In this document: positions 46,698 through 63,608 of the stretch, in pieces
Layout of the letters: each line of letters starts with the position of its first letter
Numbering within the stretch: position 1 is the stretch's first letter
NCBI GenBank assembly: GCA_944389595.1
Contig: CALXMY010000004.1
Coordinates: forward strand, 29-64,028
Length of the DNA stretch: 64,000 nt
Source: an uncultured Alphaproteobacteria bacterium
Lineage (GTDB): Bacteria > Pseudomonadota > Alphaproteobacteria > Rs-D84
Reading direction: 5' to 3'
Made by a program: the position numbers and the translations under genes
Notes under the pieces: generated by a model
Told to the model about the DNA's origin: nothing
What the model saw: the letters and a program-made list of their open reading frames with translations, nothing else
Database searches by the model: none

Positions 46698-46776
46698 TTT
46701 GCTTCCTCTATGTTTTTATTGGACGGGTAAAAATATATCACTAAAAAAGTAAAATCGCAATGAATAAAAAAAATAC

Positions 46777-46805
46777 TTGAAATGAGATTAAAAAGGTTAT
46801 ATGAT
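46777..46805 (+). promoter_or_regulatory. sigma70-like promoter (TTGAAA-N17-TATGAT) 10 nt upstream of the tRNA-Asn fragment
   Basis: Hexamers and spacing counted directly. Confidence 0.5.
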
Positions 46806-46815
46806 ATGCGAGCAT

Positions 46816-46853
46816 TCGGGCATAGTTCAGTCGGTAGAACAACGGACTGTTAA
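46816..46853 (+). pseudogene. 5' half of tRNA-Asn (GTT): acceptor 5' strand, D-arm, anticodon stem 5' strand and loop CTGTTAA, truncated right after the anticodon loop
   Basis: TCGGGCATAGTTCAGTCGGTAGAACAACGGACTGTTAA closely parallels E. coli tRNA-Asn positions 1-38. The next bases (gcatcagag...) cannot pair with ACGGA. No T-arm or CCA appears in the following ~300 nt. Confidence 0.8.
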
Positions 46854-46888
46854 GCATCAGAGCAAGCCCAACAGCAAATTCGAGTTTT

Positions 46889-46910
46889 GCCCAGATTTCT
46901 GGGTTTTTTT
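46889..46910 (+). terminator. Terminator-like hairpin (cccag-attt-ctggg) plus T7, about 40 nt after the tRNA-Asn break
   Basis: Read directly. Confidence 0.5.
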
Positions 46911-46960
46911 GTTGCTTTTTTTTCAGTTCTGACGACTTAACACATTACGCTTAAAACCTG

Positions 46961-47092
46961 TTAAAACCTGTATGGATACCGTTTGAAAAACATACATTTT
47001 CATACCGCAAACCGATTTGAACCAAATTTTGTGTTCCACGATTTCAATACTGATTTCTAGTTGATTTCAATGATGATTTCAATGCTGATTTT
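46961..47092. repeat. Short direct-repeat cluster: ttaaaacctg x2 in tandem (46961-46980) and five GATTT(C/T) boxes at 11-12-bp spacing (47040-47092), three of them as GATTTCAAT
   Basis: GATTTC at 47040, 47052, 47063 and 47075, and GATTTT at 47087, read directly. Confidence 0.8.
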
Positions 47093-47100
47093 TTACATCA

Positions 47101-47129
47101 AAAAACCGCCCGTTTGGGCGGTGGTTTTA
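47101..47129 (-). terminator. Intrinsic terminator of the 48.5-to-47.16 kb minus-strand operon (accgccc-aaac-gggcggt plus T6 on the minus strand)
   Basis: Read directly. Confidence 0.8.
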
Positions 47130-47158
47130 TATTGTCTTTGGCCTGGTCTGCATCAAAT

Positions 47159-47305
47159 TTATTCTGAAAGGATTTCTATTGCCGCATTTATCCATGCTTT
47201 ATAGATATGTTGACCAACAGATTTTTCTTCCTTGGTTTCAGGTTCCATTACACTAAATCTTACTGTCTTATCAGCAGCTATAATATCTAAATCATATTGT
47301 TTCAT
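47159..47305 (-). CDS. Small hypothetical protein (48 aa), last gene of the three-gene module
   Basis: Hand translation gives MKQYDLDIIAADKTVRFSVMEPETKEEKSVGQHIYKAWINAAIEILSE*. The ATG is preceded by ggagtagcag and lies 3 nt after the upstream stop. It is below the ORF-track cutoff. Confidence 0.5.
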   Translation of the reverse strand: MKQYDLDIIAADKTVRFSVMEPETKEEKSVGQHIYKAWINAAIEILSE

Positions 47306-47308
47306 CTG

Positions 47309-47989
47309 CTACTCCTTTATTGCGTTCTGCACAACATCCAGAAATCGAACCATTGCGATGGTGTCTTGGCCACAGTATTCATGCAGGTTATGCATCATTT
47401 CTTCGGTTTGTGCCGGTGTCTGCTTGCCAATCATAAAGTTCATGAACTGATCGCTGGCCTCGGTTCCGTTGTGGATCCCCAGATTCTCGTACGACATTTC
47501 TGGCACAAAGGCTGGCAGTGTCTGTTTAATTGATGCGCTGCCGTTCTGGCACGGGCGATACAGGCCACGTTCACGGAATGGGGTCAGCAAGTCCAGCATG
47601 CGGTCATTTATCGCCAGCAATTGGTCTGCATATTCTGGGTTCAGGGTCAGTATGTAGCAATCACGTATTTTGACACCACATTGTGTGAATACATATTTCT
47701 GGAATGAAGCATCAAGATAGTGGTATTCGTGTGGGCTTGTGGTTGACTTAACCTCTATGATGTCCCATGTGCCATCATTATTATTACGAAGAATGTCCAC
47801 CGCACAGTATTCGCCTGTCTTGGTGGACAATGTTGCCTCATAGATATATGGGTCATCAGCCTTTATGGCATCTTGGGTCTGCCATGCTGCCTCATATTCC
47901 CATGGTTTAGCTGTGATGTATCTGCCACCTGGGAACTTATCCTGAGCTAGTCTACCGATTTCAATTACTTGCCTTGCTAGATAATGCAT
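47309..47989 (-). CDS. PD-(D/E)xK nuclease-fold protein resembling the DUF2779 family (Cas4/RecB-like core), apparently shortened
   Basis: ...IYEATLS...YCAVDILRNNNDGTWDIIEVKSTT...YHYLDASFQKYV... gives the D...(D/E)xK pattern. The C-terminal ...EYCGQDTIAMVRF resembles the tail of DUF2779 proteins as I remember them. Confidence 0.55.
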   Translation of the reverse strand: MHYLARQVIEIGRLAQDKFPGGRYITAKPWEYEAAWQTQDAIKADDPYIYEATLSTKTGEYCAVDILRNNNDGTWDIIEVKSTTSPHEYHYLDASFQKYVFTQCGVKIRDCYILTLNPEYADQLLAINDRMLDLLTPFRERGLYRPCQNGSASIKQTLPAFVPEMSYENLGIHNGTEASDQFMNFMIGKQTPAQTEEMMHNLHEYCGQDTIAMVRFLDVVQNAIKE

Positions 47990-48399
47990 GTAAAGTCGCT
48001 GGTCGCTATTTGAAAATCGCTTTCTTTGTGTATCTTGTTTCTGTCCTCAAAGTCCTTGATACATTCCAGGAAGAACACAATGTCTGCAAACACGATACTG
48101 ATGTCTGGTGCATCTGGGATTTTTTTCTTGTGGCTATTTATGGTTTGGGGGATGGTGGGGTGACGAAAAAGTCGATATATTTCTTTCTGATCGAGATGGT
48201 GGTGTAAAGGTATTTGACCGCTAGGTCGTTCTTTTTCAGGCCAGTTGCTGTCTAGTGCGATTTCCAGCGCAACTGGCCTAATACAGCAACCTATCTGTCC
48301 TGTTTCTGCCAGCATTTCTATAACGCCGATTCCACAGTGCCATCGCTCGGCCAGCTCTTCCACGTCCAGAAAGACATGCGGAATATCAATCTCTATCAT
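47977..48399 (-). CDS. Hypothetical protein, first gene of the module (start uncertain; longest ORF runs to 48546)
   Basis: MIEIDIPHVFLDVEELAERWHCGIGVIEMLAETGQI... may be HTH-like. It overlaps the nuclease gene by 13 nt. Confidence 0.45.
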   Translation of the reverse strand: MIEIDIPHVFLDVEELAERWHCGIGVIEMLAETGQIGCCIRPVALEIALDSNWPEKERPSGQIPLHHHLDQKEIYRLFRHPTIPQTINSHKKKIPDAPDISIVFADIVFFLECIKDFEDRNKIHKESDFQIATSDFTCII

Positions 48400-48603
48400 C
48401 TTGCCCTCACAATGCATAGAATAGCAAAAAAGGAGTCGCCAAACGGCTAACTCCTTTCCTAATTCATGATTTGATTTTACAACATGTTTTTTGGATTTCA
48501 ACAGGAAAGTAATCTTAGCGAATAGTGTTTTGTATTGATTATTCACAATATTTTATTGATTCTCATCTTTTTTGTTCTAAGATAAAAAGAAAAAGGCCAT
48601 CTT

Positions 48604-49389
48604 ATGCAACAAATGCAAGAATTCAGTATTCATACTCATACAAAAATTGGTGATGGATATGATACTGTAGAAGATATGATATTAGAAGCAAAAAGATCAG
48701 GGTTAAAAACCCTGGGCATTTCCGACCATTTCTGGGCGGTTAGTTACGATCTGCCAAATTATGTTAAAGCCATTAGAGCCGCACAAGATAAGCTACAGTT
48801 TGATGTTCTTATTGGGTTAGAGATTGACAACCCGTCTGACGATCGGCTTGAAATGCTTTATAAAATAAAAAAAGAATATGGTTTTGACTACTTTATAGGT
48901 TCTCTACACGATGTACCTTATAATGGAAAAAAATATTATGTTGGCAGTAAGGAAGACAAAAATATTCTACAAAGCCAGACTTACCAACAGACATATTGGC
49001 AGACCTTGCCAAATCTGGCTAACGATCTATTTGATATCATAGCGCATATGGATCTGATAAAGCTGACAGGTGTAAAAACAGAAGCTTTGTATGAGGCCGA
49101 CATTGATAAGGCCTTAAAAGCCTTTAAGGCGAACAATCAAATTATTGAAATAAATACAAAACATCATCAAATAGAAAATGAGCCATCAGATACAATATTA
49201 GCTAAAGTAGCCAAAGCTGACATTCCTGTTATTTTTAGTAGTGATGCGCACATAAAACACCAACTTATACAGCATTTTGCTGAAGAACAGAGACGTTTAG
49301 CTGAGCCATTGGCTAAGATGCGTTATATTTCTAAGTCTGACGAATTAAGGCAATTTTTGCAATCAAGACACGGTCCTCGTACAAAATAG
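48604..49389 (+). CDS. PHP-domain phosphoesterase (HisJ/histidinol-phosphatase-like family)
   Basis: SIHTHTKIGDG...LGISDHF... shows N-terminal PHP His motifs. 261 aa. Confidence 0.7.
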   Translation: MQQMQEFSIHTHTKIGDGYDTVEDMILEAKRSGLKTLGISDHFWAVSYDLPNYVKAIRAAQDKLQFDVLIGLEIDNPSDDRLEMLYKIKKEYGFDYFIGSLHDVPYNGKKYYVGSKEDKNILQSQTYQQTYWQTLPNLANDLFDIIAHMDLIKLTGVKTEALYEADIDKALKAFKANNQIIEINTKHHQIENEPSDTILAKVAKADIPVIFSSDAHIKHQLIQHFAEEQRRLAEPLAKMRYISKSDELRQFLQSRHGPRTK

Positions 49390-49412
49390 CAAGTAACCGA
49401 AAGGCTAGAAAT

Positions 49413-50132
49413 ATGGGATTTAAAAAAAATATTGTAAATATTTTATGTTCATGCATTCCGTCAAAATCATTTTCTTCCACTGTCAGACAAGCTTTGTTAG
49501 CGACTAAGTTTCTTAATAACGGCAAAAACAATATAGTTGTGATTGTAAAAAAAGACGGTTCAAGAAAGGAACTGAGAAGAAATCTGTTAAATACAAACAT
49601 ACGATTTCTTGGAGATGATAATTATATTGAAATTCATGAACCAATGGCAGAAAACTTTAATTTTTCTTGCAAACTAAATTCTCAAACCACAATTATTATC
49701 GGCGAAAAATTTAACGGTGGTCTTAATATATATTCTGATAGCCCAACACACCCTAACAAAGCAGTATTTGGGAAGGGGATTGTTGTTACAAGGACATTAG
49801 TTATTGATTTTGCCCGTGGAAATGGCAATGTAGAAATTGGTGATAAGTGTTTGTTTTCCTGGGGCGATGAAATTCGTACAGGCGATCATCATGTAATATA
49901 CAAAAAAGGGACAAAAAAAGTATTAAACCCCAATCAAAACGTTAAGCTTGGTAGCCATGTTTGGGTTGGATCGAATGCGTTGATTCTAAAAGGTTGTAAT
50001 ATCGCTGACAATGTGATAATTGGCGCAAATTCGGTTATCACAAAATCTTTTTTGGAACCAAACATAGTCATTGCAGGCAGCCCCGCAAGAATTGTAAGAA
50101 AGGGTGTAGATTGGGGCTATGATGCGCCGTAA
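49413..50132 (+). CDS. Left-handed beta-helix (hexapeptide-repeat) acyl/acetyltransferase
   Basis: VWVGSNALILKGCNIADNVIIGANSVITKSF shows hexapeptide periodicity. Confidence 0.7.
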   Translation: MGFKKNIVNILCSCIPSKSFSSTVRQALLATKFLNNGKNNIVVIVKKDGSRKELRRNLLNTNIRFLGDDNYIEIHEPMAENFNFSCKLNSQTTIIIGEKFNGGLNIYSDSPTHPNKAVFGKGIVVTRTLVIDFARGNGNVEIGDKCLFSWGDEIRTGDHHVIYKKGTKKVLNPNQNVKLGSHVWVGSNALILKGCNIADNVIIGANSVITKSFLEPNIVIAGSPARIVRKGVDWGYDAP

Positions 50133-50143
50133 CCCATATTCGC

Positions 50144-51004
50144 TTATTTTTCTTTACTTATAATCGATTTTACACAATGGTTGTTTGAGTTTGCTTTCGT
50201 TTTCAATTTCTCCAAAAACTGGTAATCCAGCATTTCCTCTGTTGGTTTATCTTGTTCTTTACGCCATTCTTTTCTGTTTACCTGTTTTTGTGAATATATT
50301 TTGCCGGTAGCCCCCAAACAATATTTACAAGCAGATAGAGGACTCTTACATGTAATGTATTTCTCTAACGCAGCTTTTAAGTCTGGTGTATTTAAAACAT
50401 CTATACCATCTGCGAACAAGGTTTTTATCGCCTTTAAAGTGTGTGCTTGGGGACATTTATAAAAGTATCCATCTTCCAAATTGTAGCATTTCCACACATT
50501 AGCAATCAAGCAAGTTTTATATATCTGATCCGTTAAAGCAGAATTCGTAGTCCCTTGTTCAGAATAAGGTTCTCTGAATGCCTCAAAATCTAATACTACT
50601 AGCTTACAAGCACCCTTTGTTAATTCGTGAATATATTCTATATTTATGCCTGTTTGATGATCCGAGACCTCTAAAACATCAACTGAACACAGGATGTCTT
50701 TGTGCTTGTCATTGATTAAAGTTCCATTAGATACAATTGTTATACTGTCGCAAATTTTGCTTTCCCTGACGATATTTATAATTTCCTGTAAGTTTGGTGA
50801 CAAAAACGGTTCCCCACCCAGTAAGCGCACTGTTTCACAATGAAAAACATCACTCAGTCTATTTAAGGACAAACGCAATTTTTCTGTATCAAAATTGTGT
50901 TGTATACAAATTGGTGACAAGTGGCTACACCCCTTGCATGACAGATTACATCTGTTCGTTACATTTATTTCCAATTTTTCTGAAATAATCTTGCTTTTTT
51001 CCAT
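50144..51004 (-). CDS. Radical SAM enzyme with a C-terminal Cys-rich (SPASM/auxiliary-cluster-like) region
   Basis: CNLSCKGC (CxxxCxxC) near the N-terminus, and later C...CKSPLSACKYC. ATG at 51004; the track start 51046 is TTG. Confidence 0.75.
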   Translation of the reverse strand: MEKSKIISEKLEINVTNRCNLSCKGCSHLSPICIQHNFDTEKLRLSLNRLSDVFHCETVRLLGGEPFLSPNLQEIINIVRESKICDSITIVSNGTLINDKHKDILCSVDVLEVSDHQTGINIEYIHELTKGACKLVVLDFEAFREPYSEQGTTNSALTDQIYKTCLIANVWKCYNLEDGYFYKCPQAHTLKAIKTLFADGIDVLNTPDLKAALEKYITCKSPLSACKYCLGATGKIYSQKQVNRKEWRKEQDKPTEEMLDYQFLEKLKTKANSNNHCVKSIISKEK

Positions 51005-51027
51005 ATTTGTTATAAAATCCTTGTTAA

Positions 51028-52509
51028 ATGATTGAAAAGATTTCAAAAAAAATTATAAATCATAATAATGATTATGGCAAGTTAGAAAGCCAATTTTTTT
51101 CTTGCGGATATGGTCAACTAGTAAAAGCCCCCTACGATTCCCTTAAGATCCCTTATTCTGGACAACCTGTAACGATTTCTATTTTGATTCCGTGTCATAA
51201 TTCTGTGAAGACGATCAGGCATTGCATTCAACACATTTCGACAAATTCATACGTTATAAAATATCCATCTGCAGTTGAGGTTATTGTTGTAGATGACGGT
51301 TCAAACGATAAAACATTTGATGTGTTAACCGAGCTTTCCTGTCCTATGAAGGTTTTAGTCATAAAACAAGACCAACGCTATCGTAGCGGTGCATTAAACA
51401 CAGCTCTTTATCATGCATCTAATGATTTTATTTTGACCTGTGATTCTGATATGTGTTTGGACACTTTCTGTATTGAAGAAGCTGCTAAACGACTACAAGT
51501 TCTTGGCGAGAAAGCATTATTTGTCGGCTTCAGAGAAGATATTTCATTAGATAAACTGTCGAAACAAAAAGTACGTAGTCCACATTTTTGGAAAGATAAT
51601 CGTTTTTGTTTTGATTTTAGTCTGATTGACCCTGAAAATATGTTTGCTTTAACAGATGCCTATAAAAGCTTAGGAAAAAACAAGAAAATCTACATTAACA
51701 GCAAAAATGGTATAAATAGAGATGTCTGGACGTTGCCACGTATGGCTTACGGCTGTCTATTTGCTTGTGATCGACAATTTTTTCTGGATATAGGTGGATA
51801 CAATGAAACATTTCGTGGCTGGGGATATGAGGATACTTTGATTGGAGCACTGGCTATATCCATGGGGAAATACATAGTTCCTGTGCCTAGTATGTGTGGA
51901 TTTCATATATCGCATCATGTAGATATGAATACAGTTAGGAACACGCCAAACAAACATCTTTATCAAGAACTCGTTACTGCCCCACAATACATAGTTTTTG
52001 ACTATATTCAACAAAGTAGGAAATTTGTGAAGGATTCTATTGTTTTGTCGCAAAGAGAGTCTGCCCCGTTAAAAAAAATATCCCAGCGCAAATCGGATAA
52101 TTATCATTTTTATCTGGGAGAATATAGACTTATAAAATCGGGGAAACATTATCCAAAAAGTTTATTCTACTCTGGGGCACATAAACTATTGTTAGAGTTG
52201 TTTCCAAACTGCATCTATTCTTGTTTTGTGCATATTGCTATGAAGAACTTTGAAAAGGCCACTTCTTGTTTTGCAAACAATTCCAGCAAAGAAAAAGCTT
52301 ATCTAGATAGCATAGATATTGAAAAGCTATTGACGACAGCCAATTTATGGTATTCCCAGGATAGTGTTTTACTTGCTTTTCAGTATTTTTCCTTGTATGG
52401 TTTATACAAAGGTTTTGGTGCAAAATTAAAACGAATAATTAAACGTTGTATTCAAAAGCTTACAAAAAAAGGTAATAATGAAATTTCATGGTGCACCGGA
52501 ACGTTTTGA
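51028..52509 (+). CDS. Family 2 glycosyltransferase with a roughly 150-aa helical (TPR-like?) C-terminal extension
   Basis: ISILIPCHN...VIVVDDGSNDKT...CDSDM (DxD) is typical GT-A/GT2. Confidence 0.8.
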   Translation: MIEKISKKIINHNNDYGKLESQFFSCGYGQLVKAPYDSLKIPYSGQPVTISILIPCHNSVKTIRHCIQHISTNSYVIKYPSAVEVIVVDDGSNDKTFDVLTELSCPMKVLVIKQDQRYRSGALNTALYHASNDFILTCDSDMCLDTFCIEEAAKRLQVLGEKALFVGFREDISLDKLSKQKVRSPHFWKDNRFCFDFSLIDPENMFALTDAYKSLGKNKKIYINSKNGINRDVWTLPRMAYGCLFACDRQFFLDIGGYNETFRGWGYEDTLIGALAISMGKYIVPVPSMCGFHISHHVDMNTVRNTPNKHLYQELVTAPQYIVFDYIQQSRKFVKDSIVLSQRESAPLKKISQRKSDNYHFYLGEYRLIKSGKHYPKSLFYSGAHKLLLELFPNCIYSCFVHIAMKNFEKATSCFANNSSKEKAYLDSIDIEKLLTTANLWYSQDSVLLAFQYFSLYGLYKGFGAKLKRIIKRCIQKLTKKGNNEISWCTGTF

Positions 52510-52963
52510 AGCAGTTGCTGATCTGGTAGGTAGACATTTTGATACGAATAAAATCAAGTACGTAGCAGACGTTGCTGGGGGGCAAGGAATGCTCAGCAGA
52601 ATTCTGCGTAAAAGATATAACTGTGAATGCGATGTTATAGATCCTAGAGAATACGGCATTGTAGGTGTAAACAGACGTGTTGAATGTTATGTTCCAGACA
52701 TGGCCACTTTTTATGATTTGATTATTGGTTTACACCCTGATCAGGCTTTGCGCCCAGTAGTAGAATCTTCATTATATAGACCAACCATAGTTGTCCCTTG
52801 TTGTAATTACTGGTCTGCAGAAAAGATGGGTGCAAAGTTGATGCGCCAAAGTATTGAAGAATGGTACAAAGCACACAATATCAGATATGTTGTAGAAGAA
52901 TTAAAAATTGATACACCACATAGGTTCGCCTTAATAACTTTTGGTCCAAAAATAAAAGGATAA
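52478..52963 (+). CDS. Small SAM-dependent methyltransferase-like protein (161 aa) with an HPDQA...VPCC signature resembling Trm44-type RNA 2'-O-methyltransferases
   Basis: VADVAGGQGML (motif I-like) and LIIGLHPDQA...TIVVPCCNYW. The family assignment is from memory of the motif only. Confidence 0.45.
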   Translation: MKFHGAPERFEAVADLVGRHFDTNKIKYVADVAGGQGMLSRILRKRYNCECDVIDPREYGIVGVNRRVECYVPDMATFYDLIIGLHPDQALRPVVESSLYRPTIVVPCCNYWSAEKMGAKLMRQSIEEWYKAHNIRYVVEELKIDTPHRFALITFGPKIKG

Positions 52964-52967
52964 AGAT

Positions 52968-53924
52968 ATGGAAAAAACGATCTTAATATTTAGAATCAAA
53001 ACATCCAGATTGAAAGCCCGTAGTTTGGCTCTTGAGGAAGTTAAATCTTTCTTATCAGATGTTGAAAATGTAGAAGTGGTCATTGGTGGGCCTTTATCCA
53101 CAGAAAAAGGGATTATTGCCGCATATCTGCCAAAAAATTTTGATACCGATGTTCTTGCACCTGACTTTTCTAGACTTGGATACATTCAACAAGTTGACCA
53201 AATGGTTCAAGAACAAAGAGAATCGAAAAATACAATTAAATGGAAAGGTGCTTTTTATTCTTTGGAAACTATTTATGAAGAAGACAAAGAAGAAGTAAGA
53301 AATCAGGCACCAGATAAAAGGCGTTTTTTATTACCAGATCCTACGGGTACTTTACGTTATGTTAACGGTTATCGTGGCGATGGAACAGAAACGGGGAAAC
53401 GCGCCTTGCCTGTTGAAGACTGCAAGTTTATGCTTAATTTATCTAAGATCAAACGTGGCCAAAAAGTCTTGGATCCGTTTGCTGGTGCTGGTGGTATAGT
53501 CTTTGCAGCAGTCCAGGCTGGGTTGGATGTATATAGTTCCGACATAGATCCAAAGATGCAGTATGGCTTAAGGGATTTTGGATCTAAACACCATGTAGCA
53601 GATATTCAAAAACTACCATTTGACAATAATTTCTTTGATTCTGTAGTTACCGAAGCACCATTTGATACAAATGTTACTGGAAATGTCGCAGAGGGGCTGG
53701 CCGAAATGCAACGTGTTATTAAGCCATCTGGTTATATCATATTGATGGTGGCTGATCATCAGGTAGAGCAAATCCGCAAGAAGGCTGCTACTTTGGGATT
53801 AGAAACATATGTTGATCAACCCCTGGATCGTAAAGGAACAGCAGTTCATATTTTCGGCCTAAAAAAAAAGCAACTGAATCAAAATGAGCTTATGAGAGCT
53901 TTCGCAGATACTTACGGGAGATAA
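52968..53924 (+). CDS. Trm11/RlmL (UPF0020)-like SAM-dependent methyltransferase with an N-terminal extra domain and a degenerate motif IV (EAPF)
   Basis: ...CKFMLNLSKIKRGQKVLDPFAGAGGIVFAA... and ...VVTEAPFD... Confidence 0.5.
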   Translation: MEKTILIFRIKTSRLKARSLALEEVKSFLSDVENVEVVIGGPLSTEKGIIAAYLPKNFDTDVLAPDFSRLGYIQQVDQMVQEQRESKNTIKWKGAFYSLETIYEEDKEEVRNQAPDKRRFLLPDPTGTLRYVNGYRGDGTETGKRALPVEDCKFMLNLSKIKRGQKVLDPFAGAGGIVFAAVQAGLDVYSSDIDPKMQYGLRDFGSKHHVADIQKLPFDNNFFDSVVTEAPFDTNVTGNVAEGLAEMQRVIKPSGYIILMVADHQVEQIRKKAATLGLETYVDQPLDRKGTAVHIFGLKKKQLNQNELMRAFADTYGR

Positions 53925-53928
53925 GTTC

Positions 53929-55074: not shown

Positions 55075-56998
55075 AAAACCGAAAGTTAATATCATTACAG
55101 TGACATTGAATCGCCCATCTTTAGTTCAAGCCTGTAAAAGTGTCGATGAACAAACATACAAAAATTGGCATCATTTTGTTCTTGGAGATGGTGTATTACC
55201 GGACGAACTACGTCATCCAAATCGCAGTGTTTTTGGCTTTTCTCATGCATATGGGAAAGAAGAGCCCGGCTTAAACATGCCTGACGGGACTCCCAATCCT
55301 TTGCAACGCTGGGCCTTAAACAACCTGAAATTGGATGAATACTTTTGTTTTTTAGACGACGACAATATATACGATAAAAATTTCCTAAAAAAAATGGTCG
55401 CTACCATTGAAAGTAATCCGGATATTGGTTGTGTATTGTGTGGCGTAAAAGATCAAAGACATTTCCAAAATATCACAGGAGAACCTATTCTGGGAAGATG
55501 TGATAACAGCGGTGTTATCTTTCGCACAAAACTGGCAACGAAAATTGAATTTCCACACGCATCGTTGGACAAGAACGTTGTTCAGGATGTTGAATTCATT
55601 CAAAAGGTTTCAAAGAAATTTGGTTGGAGACAATTAAGTGAAACCCTAGTGACATTTGGGTCTGCTCCAAATGTGCCTACCGTACGTGGAGGAATAAAAT
55701 TGTTGTCTTCGTGGGAATTACCACTGTTCGCATTTAAAAAATTAAAAGAGGGAAAAATATCAGATGCCATTCAAGATTTGCTAACTTCTCTTCAAATAGA
55801 CCCATTGGACGGTTATGCCCTTTGGAGATTAGCAGAAGCATATGCTGTTTCTGGCAACATAAAAAAATCAAAAGAGTGTTTACGGAAGTGGATTCATCTT
55901 GCGGAAGAATCACATTGTTTCTCTCATCATTTTATTACTTTTTGTTGCGGCCTATCCTACAAGGCTTTGAATCTTCCAACAAAAAATCTGTTTAAAAAGG
56001 CTATTGAGACAATTGATACTTCTACCATATCAGAACAACTTAGTTGTGAGTGGTATAGGATTGTTTCCAATGAAAAAAGAGATATTAAATTTTATTCTCA
56101 GATATTGCAACAAATAGAATCCGACTCTACAAAAATTCAGAACGCACTATGGAAAGCTCGTGTTGCTGCAAAACTGTTCCCACGGCAACAAAACATACAG
56201 GCTGCTTATGAATTGCTGCACAATTATTATTACAACAAGGAAATCACTGTCTTAACAATTACTCGTGGTCGCCCTAAATTATTAGCTCGTGCAATTGATT
56301 CTGTTAAAGCACAAGAAAATGCAAGAAATGTTAACCATTTGATAATTATTGACGATTGCAAAGAAACACTTAATTTCCTGGAAACAAATTATCATACTGA
56401 TGATAGCATTCAGTGGGAATTTGTAAAACGAACTTCCAGGGAAGTCAACGGTCCGGCACGAATTGCCCGGTTACGTAACAAAGGCATCAATAGTGTTCAC
56501 ACCAAATATTTGGCAATGTTGGACGATGATAATGAATATACCCCAGATCATCTTAAGACACTGTTAAACCTGGCAAAGACTGAAAATTTGCTGGCTGTTC
56601 ATTCTTGGAGACGCTTGTTCACATTTGATGGGAAACCTTTTACCGATAACTTTTGGCCATGGGAAACGGATAAAACATCCCAAAAAGCCAAATATAAGGA
56701 TTATGTGAAACGTGGTATTGTAGATCAAGATTCCAATATTCTTCGTGATGGTTTTGATAATAATACGGTAGATACCAGTGCATGGTTGCTAGAAACCAAA
56801 ACTATGCAAAGCTTACTATTTCCAGAAAAATACTCCGCTGATGACATAGCAAAGAATATTGTTGAGGACAAAAAGTTTTATCAGATAATATCTTCTAGAC
56901 CAAATATTAAAATCGGCACAACAAAAAAGTGTACCTTAAAATACTACCTTGGTGGCTATTCAACTGATTTTAATAAGTCATTAAAACGCACAAAATAG
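55067..56998 (+). CDS. Dual-domain glycosyltransferase: two GT2-like domains joined by a TPR-like helical linker
   Basis: ATG at 55067 overlaps the upstream stop (ATGAATAA). Domain 1: NIITVTLNRP...FLDDDN. Domain 2: TVLTITRGRP...LIIIDDC...MLDDDNEY. Linker: ...ALWRLAEAYAVSGNIKKSKECLRKWIHLAE... Confidence 0.7.
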   Translation: MNKKPKVNIITVTLNRPSLVQACKSVDEQTYKNWHHFVLGDGVLPDELRHPNRSVFGFSHAYGKEEPGLNMPDGTPNPLQRWALNNLKLDEYFCFLDDDNIYDKNFLKKMVATIESNPDIGCVLCGVKDQRHFQNITGEPILGRCDNSGVIFRTKLATKIEFPHASLDKNVVQDVEFIQKVSKKFGWRQLSETLVTFGSAPNVPTVRGGIKLLSSWELPLFAFKKLKEGKISDAIQDLLTSLQIDPLDGYALWRLAEAYAVSGNIKKSKECLRKWIHLAEESHCFSHHFITFCCGLSYKALNLPTKNLFKKAIETIDTSTISEQLSCEWYRIVSNEKRDIKFYSQILQQIESDSTKIQNALWKARVAAKLFPRQQNIQAAYELLHNYYYNKEITVLTITRGRPKLLARAIDSVKAQENARNVNHLIIIDDCKETLNFLETNYHTDDSIQWEFVKRTSREVNGPARIARLRNKGINSVHTKYLAMLDDDNEYTPDHLKTLLNLAKTENLLAVHSWRRLFTFDGKPFTDNFWPWETDKTSQKAKYKDYVKRGIVDQDSNILRDGFDNNTVDTSAWLLETKTMQSLLFPEKYSADDIAKNIVEDKKFYQIISSRPNIKIGTTKKCTLKYYLGGYSTDFNKSLKRTK

Positions 56999-57000
56999 AA

Positions 57001-57948
57001 TTAAATAACGGTTTTAAAGTAATCTATTGTGCTTTTTAACCCCTCAGACAAACTCGTTGTGGGGTTCCATTTTAGTTTTGCCTTAGCAATTGTGATATCC
57101 GGTTTTCTTCTGTTTGGATCATCCGCATCACGTAATGAGTGTTTAGATACTATCTTTGAGGTGGTTTTCGTCATACGAACAACCTTTTCAGCCAATTTCT
57201 TTATAGTAAGTTCTTCTGGGTTCCCTATGTTTATCGGTCCTGTTACACTCTTTGAAGAATTCATCAGTTTTATAAGTCCGCTTATCAAATCATCAACATA
57301 GCAAAAACTACGAGTCTGCTCGCCAGAACCATATATAACAATATCTTTATTGGTAAGTGCCTGCACAATAAAGTTTGAAATGACTCTGCCATCATTTTTA
57401 TTCATCTTTGGACCATAAGCATTAAAAATTCGTGCAATTTTTATTTTGGCATTTTTGTGTCTGTAATAATCAAACATCAATGTTTCTGCGCATCTTTTTC
57501 CCTCATCATAACACGCTCTGTCACCGATGGGATTAACATTACCCCAATATGTTTCCTTTTGGGGATGCTGTAATGGATCGCCGTATATTTCGGAAGTAGA
57601 AGCTTGTAGGATGGTTGCATCGTTTTTTATTGCCAACTCTAATACATTTATCATACCGATCGTACATGTCTTTGTAGTCAGAATACTATGCGACCCCTTA
57701 TAAGCAGCAGGGCTTGCGGGACATGCAAGATTATAAATTTGATCAATATGAGCTCGAATCTTGATTGGTTCAATTATGTCGTGTAAAACAAACCTAAAAT
57801 TAGGGTGTCGCTTTAATTCTTTTATGTTTTCTACACTACCGGTATAGTTATTGTCCAAACAGATAACCTTATTACCTTGTCGTAATAATCTTTCACACAG
57901 ATTACTGCCTATAAATCCCGTACCACCAGTAACTAAAATTGTTTTCAT
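57001..57948 (-). CDS. UDP-glucuronate decarboxylase (UDP-xylose synthase)-like SDR
   Basis: [17 protein letters not shown]... and [12 protein letters not shown] (the YDEGKR.AE signature of UXS/ArnA-decarboxylase-type enzymes). Confidence 0.75.
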
Positions 57949-57958
57949 AAAGCCCCCA

Positions 57959-59092
57959 TCATATATTTATTAAAGTTCTTAAGTTGATTAAACTTTCTTC
58001 TTCTTGTTTTTGTTTCTTCTTCAATAATCCCTTACAAATTCGTTTGTAATTTCTTCGACTTAGTTTTATGGCACTTATAACAGCATTTTCTAATTCATCG
58101 TTTTTATATAACACTGCATTTTCTTCGGAAAAACCATGTTTAGCCGCAAAAAAATCGTTCACTATTACGGGTTTAACAAAGCCCACGGATAGTCCAAAGG
58201 AACCACTCGTCTTGTTCGTTGTATAATCAGATATGTGTTGTTTATTTTTCTCTGACAGCAAGGCTAGAATAAAATCAGATTTTTTTACAATCTCATATAA
58301 TTGAGCATTCGTCACATCACCCCAAATAGAGACGTTATTTGAATATTTTACAAATTCTGGTGACAATTCTTCTTGTCCAACACGCCCGACAATATTCAGA
58401 TGAAAATCTGTTACACCGGATTTGTTTAGTTTTTCTAATATGCGCAATAGAAGACTCATGTCCCTACATTTAGCATCAAATCTGCCAGCGACAAGAAAAT
58501 GTGTTTGTTTGTTCTTCTTTGATATTTTCGTGTTTGAGTACAAAGTCGGTGATATATAAGGTACGGAAATGTTTTTACTATAAGGAAATTTGTGTAATGC
58601 TACAGCGTGTGATAGAAATCCTTTTCTTTCTTTTGGTAATGTTAAAGTCTTGAAACGTTCCCATTGATGCTCAATGAAAAAGATATTATTTTTTGTGAAC
58701 TTGGAACAAAAGTTGTCTTTGAACAACTTTGGATAATACACCCCTGTAAAATCGTCTGTTGATGTCAAGAAAATATATTTATAACGCCGCATATTGCATC
58801 TAAATAGCTCATCGCTTAACGCTGCCGGCAAAAACAGATGAAAAATTCTAACCCTATGTTCATTTAACAATACGTTTTTCAATAAATCATTTGTGTAATT
58901 CTTATCACTAACAACAACATCAACATGGAAACCCATTTTTAAGAAATAATTTACAACAGGTGGAATAACCTCGCCATGCCAGTTGGTTGGTTCTATAACC
59001 AAAACGGATTTATCAGGTACATCTGATTCAATCATTGGCATTATGCCATGATATCGTAAAAGTTTATCTCTTATAGTCAACAAATCTGTCAT
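57959..59092 (-). CDS. Putative glycosyltransferase (GT-B-like C-terminal half); otherwise hypothetical
   Basis: ...[26 protein letters not shown]...HLNIVGRVG... resembles the GT1/GT4 C-domain. The support is weak. Confidence 0.4.
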
Positions 59093-59265
59093 TTGGCTGT
59101 CTTTTGTTTAATGTTTGAACTAGATTTTGAGACCATCCTTATAACAGACGGTTCTTCAGATAGTCTAAAATCCAAAATCCCTTTTTGACTTATATTCTTC
59201 TTTATAAAATGTCTTATGTCTTTTAATGTTGTTCCGTCAGCGGTCATTATAAATGTAACATTCAT
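59089..59265 (-). CDS. Small hypothetical protein (58 aa) coupled by ATGA overlaps to both neighbours
   Basis: Hand translation gives [58 protein letters not shown]. tcat overlaps lie at 59262-59265 and 59089-59092. Confidence 0.45.
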   Translation of the reverse strand: MNVTFIMTADGTTLKDIRHFIKKNISQKGILDFRLSEEPSVIRMVSKSSSNIKQKTAK

Positions 59266-60686
59266 AGCACTTCCTTTAATGTAACAGATGCAAAATCTTT
59301 TACATTCATCTGAAACCGATTGTATTTTGTTGGGACTTTTAATTTATTTTTTGAGAATATAGCTATCGGTTTAAATGGATTCCTTTCCAATAATACATCT
59401 AATTCTTGTGCGGAACGAATTGTATGCATCTGAATACCAAGAGCAGATCGTTCTACCAACGCAGCTTTCCTATCATCATATTTTTTATTCTTGTTGATAT
59501 ATAAGACAATTGTTGGCTTATCATTCCCATATCCAGGTGCCATGTCTATAAATACATTGTCTGGCAATTTTGTACCAGGTGTCAACATTAACAATGGTAT
59601 GCCTGATTTGAATGATGCAAAATTTACAATGTGCTGAGCAATTTGTGACGAATGATTATCTAGCTTTCTTTTTACTCTTGCTGTTTTAATTATTTGTTTA
59701 AGAAGATTACACAATGTGTCATCATTATAATCTGTTGGTAAAGAATGCACATTGGTATATCTATTTTGCAATTGCTTTATCCATTCTTCTTGTTGTTCCA
59801 AATATGAAACGCTTGGGATCAACAACAAATCCGCATTCCCCGATAAAGATTCAAATACAGCATTATACCCAGGCCTTAGAACACATACCTTGGATATGGC
59901 AAACAAAGCAGGTAAATTTGGTTCAAATTCTACGATCCTAACATTTTTTATATTGCTCGGCACAACAATCTCATCTTTATAGTTACTCCCTTTGACTATA
60001 ACTATCATACATTGCTTTAACTTAGGTGCAATAGAGATGGCAGCAGAAAACAATTTTTTACAAAACCCCTCTCCAAAATGTTCTCCGCCAGCACCTGCAT
60101 TAAAGACGATCAGGTTATCATTATGCGGATATCGGTTTGCAACGTCCCTAATTTCCTGTTTGGTTGGCTTATAGAATACAGGCCCCATAAATTTGACTTT
60201 TTCTTCATACTCCAACCACAAACGCAATTTTGGGTTAGCAACGTCATTAAATAATTCTTGCTTAGATTGCAGAAAAACTACCTTATCAAAGCGATCAAAC
60301 TTTTTATTGTCTAGCATCGACACCAATGCATTTTCTTCTATTCTGCGCATAATAAGAACTTTGTGCCGATACTTAAGGGACGGCACTTGTTCATACACAG
60401 GATCTGGGTCTGTGTCCTCTATAACAATATCTGGACTAACCTCTGTTACTATTGTATCTATCAGTTGTTTTAGAAATATTTCTGATAAATTGGATGGTAA
60501 TCTGTGCATAAACGGTATATTAAAAACCACAAATCCCTTGTTTTCAAACAAATCTGTAGATTTGGCTTGGGTTATAAAAAAAACATGGTGTCCCATTTTA
60601 CGCAAATCTTCCGCAATAACCAACGCCCTACGAAAATGCCCAAACCCTATGCCGTTTTTTAATAAAAATAATATTTTGTGTTGCAT
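59262..60686 (-). CDS. GT-B fold glycosyltransferase, MurG/PseG(SpsG)-like N-terminus
   Basis: ATG at 60686. MQHKILFLLKNGIGFGHFRRALVIAEDLRKMGH... matches the G-x-G-x-GH..R motif of that group. Confidence 0.6.
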   Translation of the reverse strand: MQHKILFLLKNGIGFGHFRRALVIAEDLRKMGHHVFFITQAKSTDLFENKGFVVFNIPFMHRLPSNLSEIFLKQLIDTIVTEVSPDIVIEDTDPDPVYEQVPSLKYRHKVLIMRRIEENALVSMLDNKKFDRFDKVVFLQSKQELFNDVANPKLRLWLEYEEKVKFMGPVFYKPTKQEIRDVANRYPHNDNLIVFNAGAGGEHFGEGFCKKLFSAAISIAPKLKQCMIVIVKGSNYKDEIVVPSNIKNVRIVEFEPNLPALFAISKVCVLRPGYNAVFESLSGNADLLLIPSVSYLEQQEEWIKQLQNRYTNVHSLPTDYNDDTLCNLLKQIIKTARVKRKLDNHSSQIAQHIVNFASFKSGIPLLMLTPGTKLPDNVFIDMAPGYGNDKPTIVLYINKNKKYDDRKAALVERSALGIQMHTIRSAQELDVLLERNPFKPIAIFSKNKLKVPTKYNRFQMNVKDFASVTLKEVL

Positions 60687-60714
60687 ATTCAATATCTTGT
60701 TGTATATATATAGT

Positions 60715-61410
60715 ATGACACAATGGACTGATTTTCAAGCCAAATTATCGGAATATTTTCATTCTGGACAACAGATTTCTTTCTGGTGGCGGGAGGATGA
60801 CGTTTCTTATGATTGTGCTAATCTGCGCATAGTGCTTGATGTCCTTTCAAAATATAACGTCCCTGTGTTATGTGGTGCTATCCCAAAATTATTAACACTA
60901 GACATGATTCTGACACTTAAGCAATATACGAACGTTTCTGTATGTCAGCATGGTTTATTTCATCAGAACAACTACACACAAGGCCATAAGTGCGAATTCG
61001 ATACAAATGAGTCATTGGGGCAATTGCTTATAGGGCGAGATTTCCTACGAACTACATTTGCATCTCAGTTTATAAATGTGTATATTCCCCCTTGGAACAA
61101 TATCAGCAAATCTTTTAAGGATTTTTTGCTAGCAAACGGATATTGTGCTGTATCTGCCTGGAATTATTCACCAGATAGAAAAAGACCTTATAATTTTGAC
61201 GTAGATCTGATAGATTGGTCAAAGTCTGAATCTTTTGAAGACGAAAGTTTCGTAATTAGACAGATATTGCAATGCTTTGAACGTAATGACTTCCATATCG
61301 GTATAGTTAATCACCACAGGACTATTAGTAAAAAGGGTGTAAAATTCATAGAAAAGTTACTTGCGGAATTTTCCAAATATCCAAACATTTCTTGGTTCTT
61401 ACCGTTTTAG
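60715..61410 (+). CDS. CE4 (NodB)-like polysaccharide deacetylase family protein
   Basis: ATG at 60715. The track ORF from 60193 is antisense overlap with the neighbouring GT gene. Motifs: WWREDDV, CQHGLFH, YIPPWN. Confidence 0.5.
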   Translation: MTQWTDFQAKLSEYFHSGQQISFWWREDDVSYDCANLRIVLDVLSKYNVPVLCGAIPKLLTLDMILTLKQYTNVSVCQHGLFHQNNYTQGHKCEFDTNESLGQLLIGRDFLRTTFASQFINVYIPPWNNISKSFKDFLLANGYCAVSAWNYSPDRKRPYNFDVDLIDWSKSESFEDESFVIRQILQCFERNDFHIGIVNHHRTISKKGVKFIEKLLAEFSKYPNISWFLPF

Positions 61411-62150
61411 TCATTTCGTGTCACAACACCTATAGTCCCATGGATATAAAATTTATATCTTGTGTTTCTCTCTATAAACATTTGTGCACCCTTTTGAACT
61501 TCTTTTCCCCATTTACCACATACATCATGCAAAACCACACAACCGTTAGAATTTAACATTTCTGTTGTTAGTTTTAGGTTTGACTCTACTGATTCCGCAT
61601 AATGATCCGCATCAATAAATATTAAATCAAATTTTCTTTTTTGTTCTAATACAGTGGATATTACAGGAATTTTTAGCATATCTGGATTATTGGGCAAATG
61701 GTAGGCTATGGTATTATCATCGGGTATTTTTGAAAAAAACGCTTTTATTTTTGTGATTCTATCACACAGACTAAAATTCTTGCTTAAGGCTTGAAAATAG
61801 TAATCTGTACTTTCATTTAATTCTACTCCATATGTTTTGGCATCGCTCTTTATAGAAAGACATGGATCTACACAATAAATTTTCGATTTTTTAAATAATG
61901 TTAATAAAACTATTGCGCTAACACCAACAAAACTACCTATCTCTAATACAGATGAAATATCCTTATCCTTGGCAATATCATAAATAGACTTTATATCATC
62001 TGGAATTAAACACACACTATATAGCAGCTCTTTAGGAATCCCCATCTGTCGCAGTATTTTAAATGAGGCCTCTCTGATTTCTAATGCTTTTGTTAAATAC
62101 ATATAAAATCCGTTTTTAATAAAACGTAATATATTTTTTTGTATTGTCAA
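61407..62150 (-). CDS. Class I SAM-dependent (O-)methyltransferase (CmcI/Methyltransf_24-like)
   Basis: VLEIGSFVGVSAI (motif I) and LIFIDADHYAESV. The start is TTG 62150 or ATG 62102. Confidence 0.65.
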   Translation of the reverse strand: MTIQKNILRFIKNGFYMYLTKALEIREASFKILRQMGIPKELLYSVCLIPDDIKSIYDIAKDKDISSVLEIGSFVGVSAIVLLTLFKKSKIYCVDPCLSIKSDAKTYGVELNESTDYYFQALSKNFSLCDRITKIKAFFSKIPDDNTIAYHLPNNPDMLKIPVISTVLEQKRKFDLIFIDADHYAESVESNLKLTTEMLNSNGCVVLHDVCGKWGKEVQKGAQMFIERNTRYKFYIHGTIGVVTRND

Positions 62151-62163
62151 GAAGTTAGTAGCA

Positions 62164-62913
62164 CTAGACTGTTTTTCTTCGAAACTTTTTATTTAGTTTG
62201 ACTACTTTTTTCAATAAATATCCTAAGGATTCTCGCTTGTTTTGAACATAAAATGCATGAACATCTTTTGGAAAACATTTGCCCCCATAGCCAAATGAGC
62301 CGTCTGGTCCTGGCACCATAGTATGAACTGGACTTATATATTTGCTTAGCACAACTCCTTTTCTAACTTTTTGAAAATCGACATTAAATTTTGAACAACA
62401 TTCATATACTGCATTAAAGTACGTTACTTTTAATGCCCCAAAAACATTATGTGCATACTTTGCAATTTCTGCTTCTGTACTGGACATTTGTATAAATGGT
62501 TTATTTGGAAATATTGTTTTTAATAAATTTTTTCGTCCTGTAAATACCATGTGCTGTTGATTAAAATCTTTGCGAGCCGTCCTTTCTGTTAAAAATTCTG
62601 GCATAAAATAAATATCTTTGTGAAACTTTGCCCTCAGTTTGTTTGTTGTTCCCGGCAAAAGTGTCGTTCTAATAAAAATAGGTTTATTTGGCAGCTCAAC
62701 AATTATTTTTTCTAAATTTTTTAGATTTTGTTTGCCGTTTCTTTCTGTAGGGATGTGTATTTGTATAAAATAAACATCGCAATCATCAATATTGTCCAAA
62801 TAGCCTTTTGCTGGATCTTGAATTTTTACAATATGTCTAGTATTAGCTCGTAGCCAGTCTTTCAGCACAGTCCCGATTACACCACAGCCAATAATTCCGA
62901 TTTTCTTACTCAT
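62164..62913 (-). CDS. Short UDP-glucose/GDP-mannose dehydrogenase family protein (NAD-binding plus central domain with catalytic Cys), lacking the usual C-terminal UDP-binding domain
   Basis: ATG at 62913. MSKKIGIIGCGVIG... (Rossmann) and ...GYGGKCFPKD... (catalytic Cys box). Only 249 aa. Confidence 0.6.
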   Translation of the reverse strand: MSKKIGIIGCGVIGTVLKDWLRANTRHIVKIQDPAKGYLDNIDDCDVYFIQIHIPTERNGKQNLKNLEKIIVELPNKPIFIRTTLLPGTTNKLRAKFHKDIYFMPEFLTERTARKDFNQQHMVFTGRKNLLKTIFPNKPFIQMSSTEAEIAKYAHNVFGALKVTYFNAVYECCSKFNVDFQKVRKGVVLSKYISPVHTMVPGPDGSFGYGGKCFPKDVHAFYVQNKRESLGYLLKKVVKLNKKFRRKTV

Positions 62914-63119
62914 AGTAATCTGTTTCCAGTTTTGTTTTATTGTGCCATGATTGTTTAATGTTCGCAATATTTATTCTGTATTTTGCCTAAATCAGCATTT
63001 CTTCCTTGAAATCTAGCGTTATTGTTGTGCCAACATTTTCTATTTTGATTACAGCATTGCTTTCCACGTTCCGGCAGAAGAATTTCACGGTCAGCTCTCT
63101 CAAGTCCTTGCTTGTCTTT

Positions 63120-63386
63120 TCATACCTGAATCCATATCCAGCGCATTTCTCTGGCCTTATCCTTGGCTTGTTGCACAGTTATTTCGCCATATTTTCCAAT
63201 CAGGATGTTTCTGTGTTTGAACTCTATCCTGCATCCCAGGTAGAACCGGATGTAGTTTGTCCCTGGTGAATATCTCAGATACAGCCCTGGAATGGTTCCA
63301 TCGCTTATCTGCATATGTTCTTTTGATCTCAGTCCTTGAATCCAGGATTCTCTGAACTGTCGCTTTTCACATAGCCATTTTGTCAT
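63120..63386 (-). pseudogene. Remnant of a P4-type tyrosine integrase: the N-terminal arm-binding (DUF4102-like) domain only
   Basis: ...ISDGTIPGLYLRYSPGTNYIRFYLGCRI...ILIGKYGEITVQQAKDKAREMR matches the GLyLrV.psG.k.w..ry...gk...lG.yp..sl..AR pattern. The ORF stops after 88 aa, and I found no catalytic-domain ORF downstream. Confidence 0.7.
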
Positions 63387-63449
63387 TTTTTTGCCTCTTG
63401 CTTTTTACACAACAATGCCGATAAAAAAATGAATATCCAGTAGAAAGAA

Positions 63450-63608
63450 TCAAGAAATTACAACGGCTTTATTAGCCACCCAGTTGTCCACGTCAGCCTT
63501 TCTGTAGCGAACCAGATGGCCAATCTTTACATATACCGGTCCAATGCCTTTCAAGCGGTAATCAACAATAGTTGAAACAGCGATGTCTTTGGATATTCCC
63601 GTTTTCAT
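63450..63608 (-). CDS. AlpA/excisionase-family small HTH protein (52 aa)
   Basis: Hand translation gives MKTGISKDIAVSTIVDYRLKGIGPVYVKIGHLVRYRKADVDNWVANKAVVIS*. The ...G..P..kiG..vRy...dv..W pattern is typical of AlpA/Xis HTH_17 proteins. It is below the ORF-track cutoff. Confidence 0.6.
   Translation of the reverse strand: MKTGISKDIAVSTIVDYRLKGIGPVYVKIGHLVRYRKADVDNWVANKAVVIS

Follow-up and report, generated by a model that had tools for sequence, protein, structure and literature searches.

A decayed phage-type island beside fabI that probably restores a tRNA-Asn gene from its 5′ side in uncultured Alphaproteobacteria

I analyzed a stretch of 64,000 nucleotides (hereafter the window) from an uncultured Alphaproteobacteria bacterium (Rs-D84 in the GTDB lineage; GenBank assembly GCA_944389595.1, contig CALXMY010000004.1, positions 29 to 64,028 of the forward strand), in which a partial transfer RNA (tRNA) gene for asparagine, tRNA-Asn, lies next to the fabI gene. 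It is very probable that the DNA from 46854 to ~64464 is one decayed island of the temperate-phage type, which sits in this tRNA-Asn gene and restores it with its own promoter and its own tRNA 5′ half. An earlier reading of the window, made from the letters alone (the sequence-only reading), had noticed the partial tRNA gene, a truncated integrase gene, and the AT-rich DNA between them, and had held that the tRNA gene is not regenerated.

ARAGORN called only a tRNA-Gly and a tRNA-Arg gene in the window. No tRNA-Asn was called, not even at the partial gene, where a full prediction had been named by the sequence-only reading as an outcome that would speak against it. The nucleotides 46816-46853 (+) match positions 1-38 of the tRNA-Asn(GTT) called by ARAGORN in related loci with 100% identity. 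Past the anticodon-loop bases CTGTTAA, with which this stump ends, the sequence is unrelated to the 3′ half of tRNA-Asn; the stump is thus just what the sequence-only reading had described. Its 34-nt core has a single match in the window and none in 100 shuffles. An Rfam search at permissive E-values over 40-64 kb revealed neither a tRNA nor another credible RNA at this position, and the folded stump transcript (46816-46925) showed a terminator hairpin only and no tRNA-like structure.

Is the stump a damaged gene or a displaced fragment? I retrieved the contigs that encode exactly the same FabI protein (45879-46697) and obtained ten same-species metagenome loci (L001-L010), whose backbone DNA is 98-100% identical to the window. 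Six of them (L001, L003, and L007-L010) have a complete tRNA-Asn gene directly beside fabI, that is, an empty site, and their homology to the window ends exactly at 46853. The site is occupied in four of the ten loci, which show the order stump-island-tRNA or stump-island. In three of these (L002, L004, and L006), the identical 38-nt stump adjoins fabI and is followed by a 3.7-kb islet, which contains a 48-amino-acid (aa) open reading frame (ORF) and NUDIX, GreA-like, and acetyltransferase genes. To the right of these genes lie, in this order, an 88-aa Arm-DNA-bind ORF, a 55-aa HTH_17 gene, and a complete tRNA-Asn gene; the block of putative glycan genes found in the window is absent. The fourth locus, L005, is identical to the window. 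Empty and occupied sites are therefore both found among close relatives.

Another contig, L011, was found by looking up the nucleotide-sugar dehydrogenase-like (Ugd-like) protein of the glycan block. It is 100% identical to window 52164-64000 (11.8 kb) and extends 4.3 kb beyond the window end. A complete tRNA-Asn gene lies there at window-equivalent ~64427-64502 in the orientation of the stump (+). Since this is ~430 bp past base 64000, the regenerated gene was not visible to the sequence-only reading, whose statement that the island does not regenerate the tRNA has to be withdrawn. That reading had also proposed looking for a second intact tRNA-Asn gene and for direct repeats matching the junctions, and L011 provides both. 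The ~50 bp upstream of the intact gene together with its positions 1-38 form a 92-bp repeat of window 46764-46853 (+; ~90 bp, made up of ~50 bp of promoter region and tRNA positions 1-38) with 91% identity. This right copy occupies L011 3884-3974, or window-equivalent ~64374-64464, outside the window. The island is thus ~17.6 kb in length (46854 to ~64464), and its last ~460 bp lie beyond the window.

In both repeat copies, the promoter-like sequence TTGAAA-17-TATGAT is present ~10 nt upstream of tRNA position 1. The left one (46777-46805, +) is a consensus match whose sequence agrees with the empty-site strains and is taken as the host tRNA-Asn promoter, predicted now to drive the stump only. 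The alignment of all sites gave the relationship expected of left, right, and empty attachment sites (attL, attR, and attB) with reversed polarity. The attL consists of the host promoter, tRNA positions 1-38, and island DNA, while the attR consists of the promoter-like 50 bp and tRNA positions 1-38 borne by the island, joined to the host 3′ half and the downstream flank. From this alignment, the stump is evidently the displaced 5′ fragment at attL (46816-46853, +) and not a damaged gene. A consensus match lies upstream of the regenerated gene, and the tRNA may be expressed from this element-borne promoter. A 5′ fragment upstream of an intact tRNA-Asn gene (the copy on L011) in the same orientation is an arrangement that the Islander algorithm explicitly permits (PMC4383910).

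The right-hand part of the island contains a truncated integrase gene. An 88-aa protein encoded at 63120-63386 (-) matches Arm-DNA-bind_3 (PF13356; E 4.3e-08, 33.6 bits against a cut-off of 27), the arm-binding domain of P4-type tyrosine integrases, and aligns to residues 4-86 of full-length 407-aa integrases. The SAM-like core-binding domain and the Phage_integrase catalytic domain are both absent from the window in the domain search and in tblastn, and tblastn with full-length integrases detected no catalytic-domain remnant anywhere in it. The sequence-only reading was right about this stump, as it was about the AlpA-like and HExxH-motif ORFs upstream of it on the same strand (-). It had assigned the integrase and alpA genes to an older, separate element lying to the right; however, this module is the right-hand end of the very island that starts at the tRNA stump. 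The AlpA/HTH_17 gene (63450-63620, -) is a remnant without the N-terminal helix. Its homology to intact copies ends at 63584, and it scores 21.2 bits against a cut-off of 27 over profile positions 13-50 only, short of a complete domain; in L002, the score is 40.8 bits and the match spans positions 2-50. The HExxH-motif gene, of which the 3′ part lies in the window (63562-64000, -; the whole gene encodes 207 aa and reaches window-equivalent 64185), takes the place of the alpA 5′ end and the upstream region present in the islet strains. With no core-binding or catalytic domain in the integrase and with the N-terminus of AlpA missing, the island is predicted to be unable to excise on its own and is evidently a fixed, degenerate remnant. 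Of the integrase that Islander expects inside an island, only the 88-aa stump is present.

Despite their different cargo, the window, L002, L004, and L006 encode the identical 88-aa protein, and these four also have in common the 200 bp past its stop codon. Among the four strains, the stump gene shows 1-4 synonymous and 0 nonsynonymous differences per strain, in a segment that is nearly identical overall. Purifying selection might have retained the stump as a stand-alone DNA-binding protein, although these difference counts are small. A conserved spacer (62939-63137, -), bounded by the cargo on one side and by the point of integrase truncation on the other, contains a 38-aa ORF (62987-63103, -) just downstream of the integrase stump. 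This ORF is still open in L002 despite 24% nucleotide divergence (44/182) and may be a real small gene.

A database homologue search with the 88-aa stump returned just two near-identical proteins, and full-length relatives were therefore sought by scanning genomes and metagenomes. The scan of species-representative genomes yielded eight loci in metagenome-assembled genomes (MAGs) of uncultured gut and rumen Alphaproteobacteria, one of which is labelled Candidatus Enterousia and one of which is a complete 0.96-Mb genome; further integrase loci came from the metagenome scan and two contig look-ups. The full-length relatives are 407 aa in length and have Arm-DNA-bind_3, SAM-like, and Phage_integrase domains (the latter two were both detected in the proteins from L015 and L018). 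An alpA gene precedes each of them, and they reside in prophages with GpA-type terminase and portal genes. The integrase family as a whole comprises 136 clusters.

In a neighbour-joining tree, eleven full-length integrases fall into two clades. Clade A (L015, L020, L021, L022, and L023 in the tree) always adjoins the 5′ side of an intact tRNA-Asn gene or a 5′ stump ending at position 38. L014 and L016 were assigned to it by the near-identity of their tblastn matches to the L015 integrase. The L040 prophage also fits clade A, with an integrase-side arm (P arm) like that of L020, although its contig is interrupted within the 5′ half. A promoter and the tRNA 5′ half are present in the P arms of L015, L020, and L040. 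Clade B (L017, L018, L024, L025, and L026 in the tree) adjoins a displaced 3′ fragment that begins at tRNA position 30-32, mostly 32, with no 5′ half upstream. L019 also belongs to clade B, and its short upstream flank showed no tRNA fragment; eight prophage loci (L032-L039) have the clade B arrangement.

In the window, L002, L004, L006, L013 (which has two), L020, and L022, the 5′ stumps end at position 38, and they are continued by at least four different sequences. What the 5′ fragments (1-38) have in common with the 3′ fragments (mostly 32-76) is precisely the 7-nt anticodon loop, so that the block of identity ends at the loop and is flanked by the stem. From this exact overlap, I infer that strand exchange takes place in the anticodon loop. 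Tandem arrays exist in both polarities: L013 has two 5′ stumps, and L018 and L036 have two 3′ halves each. The L013 stumps lie 3.2 kb apart (2488-2526 and 5708-5746) and have nearly identical downstream arms. In L022 (8966-9430), a 5′ stump lies beside the alpA-integrase genes and an intact tRNA-Asn gene lies 350 bp off in the opposite orientation, and the two converge on one hairpin (CCGCAGAAATCTGCGG), which suggests an inversion at the att sites.

The right-hand flank of L017 and L034 is that of the window strain with 96-97% identity. Thus, classical elements of the 3′ type also use the same tRNA-Asn gene in the same or a sister species. One may suppose that the two clades are sister branches of a single temperate-phage integrase family of gut Alphaproteobacteria that use the same 7-bp crossover in the anticodon loop and repair tRNA-Asn from opposite sides. 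The attachment site of the element (attP) would then contain the 3′ half in clade B and the promoter and the 5′ half in clade A, and both kinds, as well as the decayed island of the window, would occupy the same tRNA-Asn gene in one species. I would give this supposition equal weight for and against, as it draws on ~25 loci and on assumptions about attL ends that were out of view; BLAST revealed no overlap through which the distant ends of the classical islands could be joined to the loci on the fabI side, and the attL of these islands was not seen. A switch of polarity within one integrase family was not found in a limited literature search. The P′ arm of the 5′-type elements has a tRNA-Asn-type terminator, and the P arm of some clade B elements has a remnant of the 5′ half (AACAACGG). 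These two features hint at a common ancestor of both clades in which attP still held the whole tRNA-Asn gene.

How did the glycan block come into the island? Junction alignments revealed four separate breakpoints: the tRNA break at 46853, the left cargo boundary at 47317, the right cargo boundary at 62939, and the integrase truncation at ~63137. The window and the islet strains differ only from 47317/47318 to 62939. The cargo boundaries are thus ~460 bp away from the tRNA breakpoint and ~200 bp away from the point of integrase truncation, and the tRNA and integrase breaks evidently predate the difference in cargo. In L013, the closest species-representative MAG, the integrase remnant is longer and its homology to the window lineage ends at ~63137; it reaches ~residue 114 and has in-frame stop codons. 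The right scaffold of L002 shifts at ~63075 from 2 differences in 465 bp, on the side of the stump and alpA, to 44 in 182 bp, which is apparently a mosaic boundary of the type left by homologous recombination. The cargo boundaries showed neither direct nor inverted repeats in a search over 46.7-64 kb, and family searches detected no recombinase or transposase genes in the block. Because of the L002 boundary and the lack of such repeats and genes, it is most likely that the cargo was swapped allelically by inter-strain homologous recombination between the scaffold segments 46854-47317 and 62939-63584.

The composition of the cargo differs from that of the backbone. The content of guanine plus cytosine (G+C) is 35.1% in 48547-62967 and 42.7% in the backbone (1-46815), in which no 14.4-kb window falls below 41.6%. 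AGA makes up 38% of the Arg codons in the genes of the block and 4% in the backbone genes, and the G+C content at third codon positions (GC3) is 0.29 and 0.41, respectively. The drop in G+C and the switch to AGA codons claimed in the sequence-only reading are thus real, but the AT-rich part begins at ~48.55 kb and not at the stump, as 47309-48546 has a backbone-like G+C content of 44.7%. Judging from these shifts, the cargo is evidently foreign. The intervening region (47309-48546, -) contains a degraded DUF2779/Cas4-like gene and then a 189-aa ORF without a family match. The DUF2779 ORF (47309-47989, -; 226 aa) joins residues 22-153 of a 488-aa homologue in frame to its residues 362-488 and is thus apparently a deletion derivative; the 488-aa homologue lies in a Dnd-associated defence cluster in L009.

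The left scaffold (P′ arm; 46854-47317) is common to the window and the L002, L004, and L006 islet. It contains a terminator-like hairpin at 46889-46904 with a T-run after it, a second hairpin at 47105-47122, and the 48-aa ORF at 47159-47305 (-). The first hairpin probably stops transcription from the stranded host promoter, and the L022 element carries an analogous one. The sequence around it (46882-46919) resembles the native tRNA-Asn terminator; it scores 39, and shuffled sequences average 14 and reach 25 at most. Against an inserted island stands this tRNA-Asn-like terminator kept in the P′ arm, which is also compatible with descent from a whole duplicated tRNA gene, and several other points weigh on the same side. 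The attL copies differ from the empty sites at two small spots just upstream of the tRNA, which calls for lineage polymorphism or gene conversion as an explanation. The intact tRNA copy was seen on the metagenome contig L011 and not in the window itself, and no single locus showed both ends of an element with a full-length integrase, as these islands exceed the 10-kb flanks. The integrase stump has 40-45 identities in 83 positions to every clade and is assignable to neither; the polarity of the window island is known from its att sites and not from phylogeny. Database, genome, and metagenome scans did not find a full-length integrase of the window's own lineage.

With regard to the bases upstream of the tRNA, the attL copies have GAGC-ATTCGGG (46811-46815), while the empty sites and most attR copies have GAGCTGTTCGGG. 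The attR of L006 has the attL version, which may be due to gene conversion between the repeat copies.

Such signs of gene conversion, as well as the significant similarity of the hairpin and T-run after the stump to the native tRNA-Asn terminator, would fit a history without site-specific integration, in which tRNA-Asn was duplicated in tandem, the fabI-proximal copy decayed, and the empty strains arose by homologous deletion. I consider this very improbable. In the window lineage, L013 (two stumps), L020, and L022, decay would not have stopped each time exactly at position 38 ahead of at least four different downstream sequences, and the repeat always adjoins the alpA-integrase module, whose intact relatives are prophage integrases with the same promoter and 5′ half in the P arm. 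Moreover, the phages of the sister clade leave the complementary fragment, mostly from position 32. Still harder to believe is the model of the sequence-only reading, in which a single insertion-deletion brought in the block, deprived the tRNA of its 3′ half and the integrase of its catalytic domain, and left the tRNA unrepaired. Within the window, both stumps do flank the AT-rich DNA and no intact tRNA-Asn gene is present. However, the same strain, as seen in L011, has the intact gene just past the window end; both stumps also exist in L002, L004, and L006, which lack the block; the cargo boundaries coincide with neither of the two breaks; and the break at position 38 recurs in other species with other sequences after it.

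What remains of that model is that foreign cargo is nested inside an older integrase-alpA element that has become immobile; the replacement by one event does not. It is also unlikely, though less strikingly so, that the glycan block is a separate mobile element that was inserted into the islet instead of replacing part of it. The sharp shift in composition and the coherent function of the 14-kb block would suit such an element, and the degraded DUF2779 gene with backbone G+C content between the left scaffold and the block implies more than one event. On the other hand, the block contains neither recombinase nor transposase genes and is not flanked by direct or inverted repeats, it stands in place of the islet cargo rather than in addition to it, and the L002 boundary lies in the shared scaffold, as expected for homologous exchange.

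The history of the decayed island that restores tRNA-Asn from its 5′ side can then be pictured as follows. An ancestral element of the temperate-phage type, whose attP carried a promoter and tRNA positions 1-38, would have integrated in the anticodon loop of tRNA-Asn by tyrosine-integrase recombination. The host promoter and 5′ half would have been stranded at the left end as the 38-nt stump, after which comes a terminator-like hairpin that the element brought along. An intact tRNA-Asn gene would have arisen at the right end, where the element's promoter and 5′ half met the host 3′ half. Later, the integrase lost everything past ~residue 83, and in the strain of the window the alpA gene lost its N-terminus. 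The cargo would also have been exchanged, resulting in a 14-kb AT-rich set of sugar enzymes in the window strain and the NUDIX, GreA-like, and acetyltransferase genes elsewhere.

The glycan-modification cargo (48604-62967) was annotated by NCBIfam and Pfam searches. All matches are below the equivalog thresholds, and the names given here are therefore generic. The cargo encodes a PHP phosphatase, a hexapeptide acetyltransferase, a radical SAM enzyme, ~5-6 glycosyltransferases of the GT2 and GT1/GT4 types (one with TPR repeats), several S-adenosylmethionine-dependent methyltransferases, and a nucleoside diphosphate (NDP)-sugar 4,6-dehydratase/epimerase. The Ugd-like gene (62164-62913, -) covers profile positions 72-299 of 413 and lacks the C-terminal domain; nine contigs nevertheless encode exactly this short protein. 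The HExxH protein, the 48-aa ORF, and the 189-aa ORF had no family match in the same databases. A hydropathy scan found no polytopic membrane protein among the cargo products, and together with the family searches it revealed no flippase, polymerase, ATP-binding cassette (ABC) transporter, initiating transferase, or GtrA/B-like protein in the cargo. Hence the cargo has the glycosyltransferases and NDP-sugar enzymes of a self-contained polysaccharide locus but not the components for export and assembly (Wzx/Wzy, an ABC transporter/synthase, or an initiating phosphoglycosyltransferase). The block was found in several contigs, always in the same context. The cargo most likely serves to build or decorate, in the cytoplasm, a surface glycan or glycoprotein, for which host genes elsewhere would provide assembly and export. 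This putative role would be in line with lysogenic-conversion cargo.

The surroundings of the tRNA-Asn gene are also variable. In L001-L010, the 3′ side of tRNA-Asn (away from fabI) is a hypervariable hotspot that contains, depending on the strain, type II-C Cas9 with Cas1 and Cas2, restriction-modification, TIR, and Fic genes, a Dnd-associated/SMC/SNF2 set, small serine resolvases with HTH_17, and phage genes. In L032 and L038 (1-8180), a different glycan set (GT2, Glyphos_transf, cytidine triphosphate transferase, GT11, and DegT aminotransferase genes) lies on the 3′ side of the same tRNA-Asn gene beside a clade B prophage. Surface-glycan genes recur at this hotspot. On L011 (1-3921; window-equivalent ~64427-68347), the gene of a 491-aa large serine recombinase ends ~30 nt inside the 3′ end of the intact tRNA-Asn gene in antisense orientation. 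Most of the recombinase gene and a gene for a 585-aa protein with a faint tail-fibre receptor-binding match lie between perfect 77-bp inverted repeats (1-77 and 3721-3797). The inner repeat is inside the recombinase gene, and the contig ends at a repeat. This region may be an invertible element or one integrated from the 3′ side. The fabI/tRNA-Asn locus is a two-sided hotspot with phage-derived islands on the 5′ side and defence islands on the 3′ side, in gut Alphaproteobacteria whose genomes appear to be small, as in the related complete MAG of 0.96 Mb.

For annotation, these results mean that a tRNA 5′ stump beside foreign DNA need not be a damaged gene, and that island finders or readers that expect 3′ fragments only will mis-delimit islands of the 5′ type. 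The locus offers a compact natural system in which to see how an integrase family changes the half of the target gene that its element must carry. The glycan cargo is a candidate determinant of surface variation at the strain level.

How does the island compare with known systems? Like other tRNA islands and prophages with P4-type integrases of the anticodon-loop class, it targets a tRNA gene, its block of identity is bounded by the 7-nt anticodon loop, its family has the same set of integrase domains (arm-binding, SAM-like, and catalytic) with an AlpA-type HTH_17 partner, and the regenerated gene and the displaced fragment form direct repeats and tandem arrays. Use of the anticodon loop by bacterial integrases was described by Williams in 2002, as summarised in a review (PMC8371274) and a preprint (bioRxiv 10.1101/2020.11.02.365908). 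The difference is that the displaced fragment is here the 5′ half, with the element supplying the promoter and the 5′ half, and that the island, its integrase reduced to 88 aa, is a fixed remnant. The cargo resembles prophage glycan-modification genes and strain-variable polysaccharide loci in that AT-rich, variable sets of glycosyltransferase, acetyl-/methyltransferase, and NDP-sugar genes are found in a phage-derived island, but it lacks the flippase, polymerase, ABC transporter, initiating transferase, and GtrA/B-like membrane protein.

According to the review, recombinant bacterial tRNA genes keep their original promoter "with very few exceptions", and the use of the tRNA 5′ half, as by the pTN3-like archaeal integrases, is "seldomly encountered in bacteria" (PMC8371274). 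The pTN3-like integrases of Thermococcales, for which attB is the tRNA 5′ half (Cossu et al. 2017, as cited in PMC8371274), are alike in that restoration takes place on the 5′ side and an element-borne promoter would be needed. In pTN3, the tRNA is reportedly expressed from the integrase promoter, while here a separate copy of a sigma-70-like promoter diverges from the alpA-integrase genes. Moreover, the hosts here are bacterial, and the likeness is one of arrangement that does not imply related integrases. Among bacteria, the islands of Klebsiella pneumoniae with clade I.d integrases at a tRNA-Arg gene (arg2) also lie upstream of their target, with a D-loop sublocation and in contrast with all other islands of that survey (bioRxiv 10.1101/2020.11.02.365908). 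Compared by description only, they differ from the present island in the tRNA, in the use of the D-loop instead of the anticodon loop, and in the class of the host. A few bacterial cases of 5′ restoration were noted by Williams in 2002, again as summarised in the review (PMC8371274). The feature in the window is thus a decayed example of an uncommon but documented 5′-side restoration, an ordinary island remnant with an uncommon polarity.

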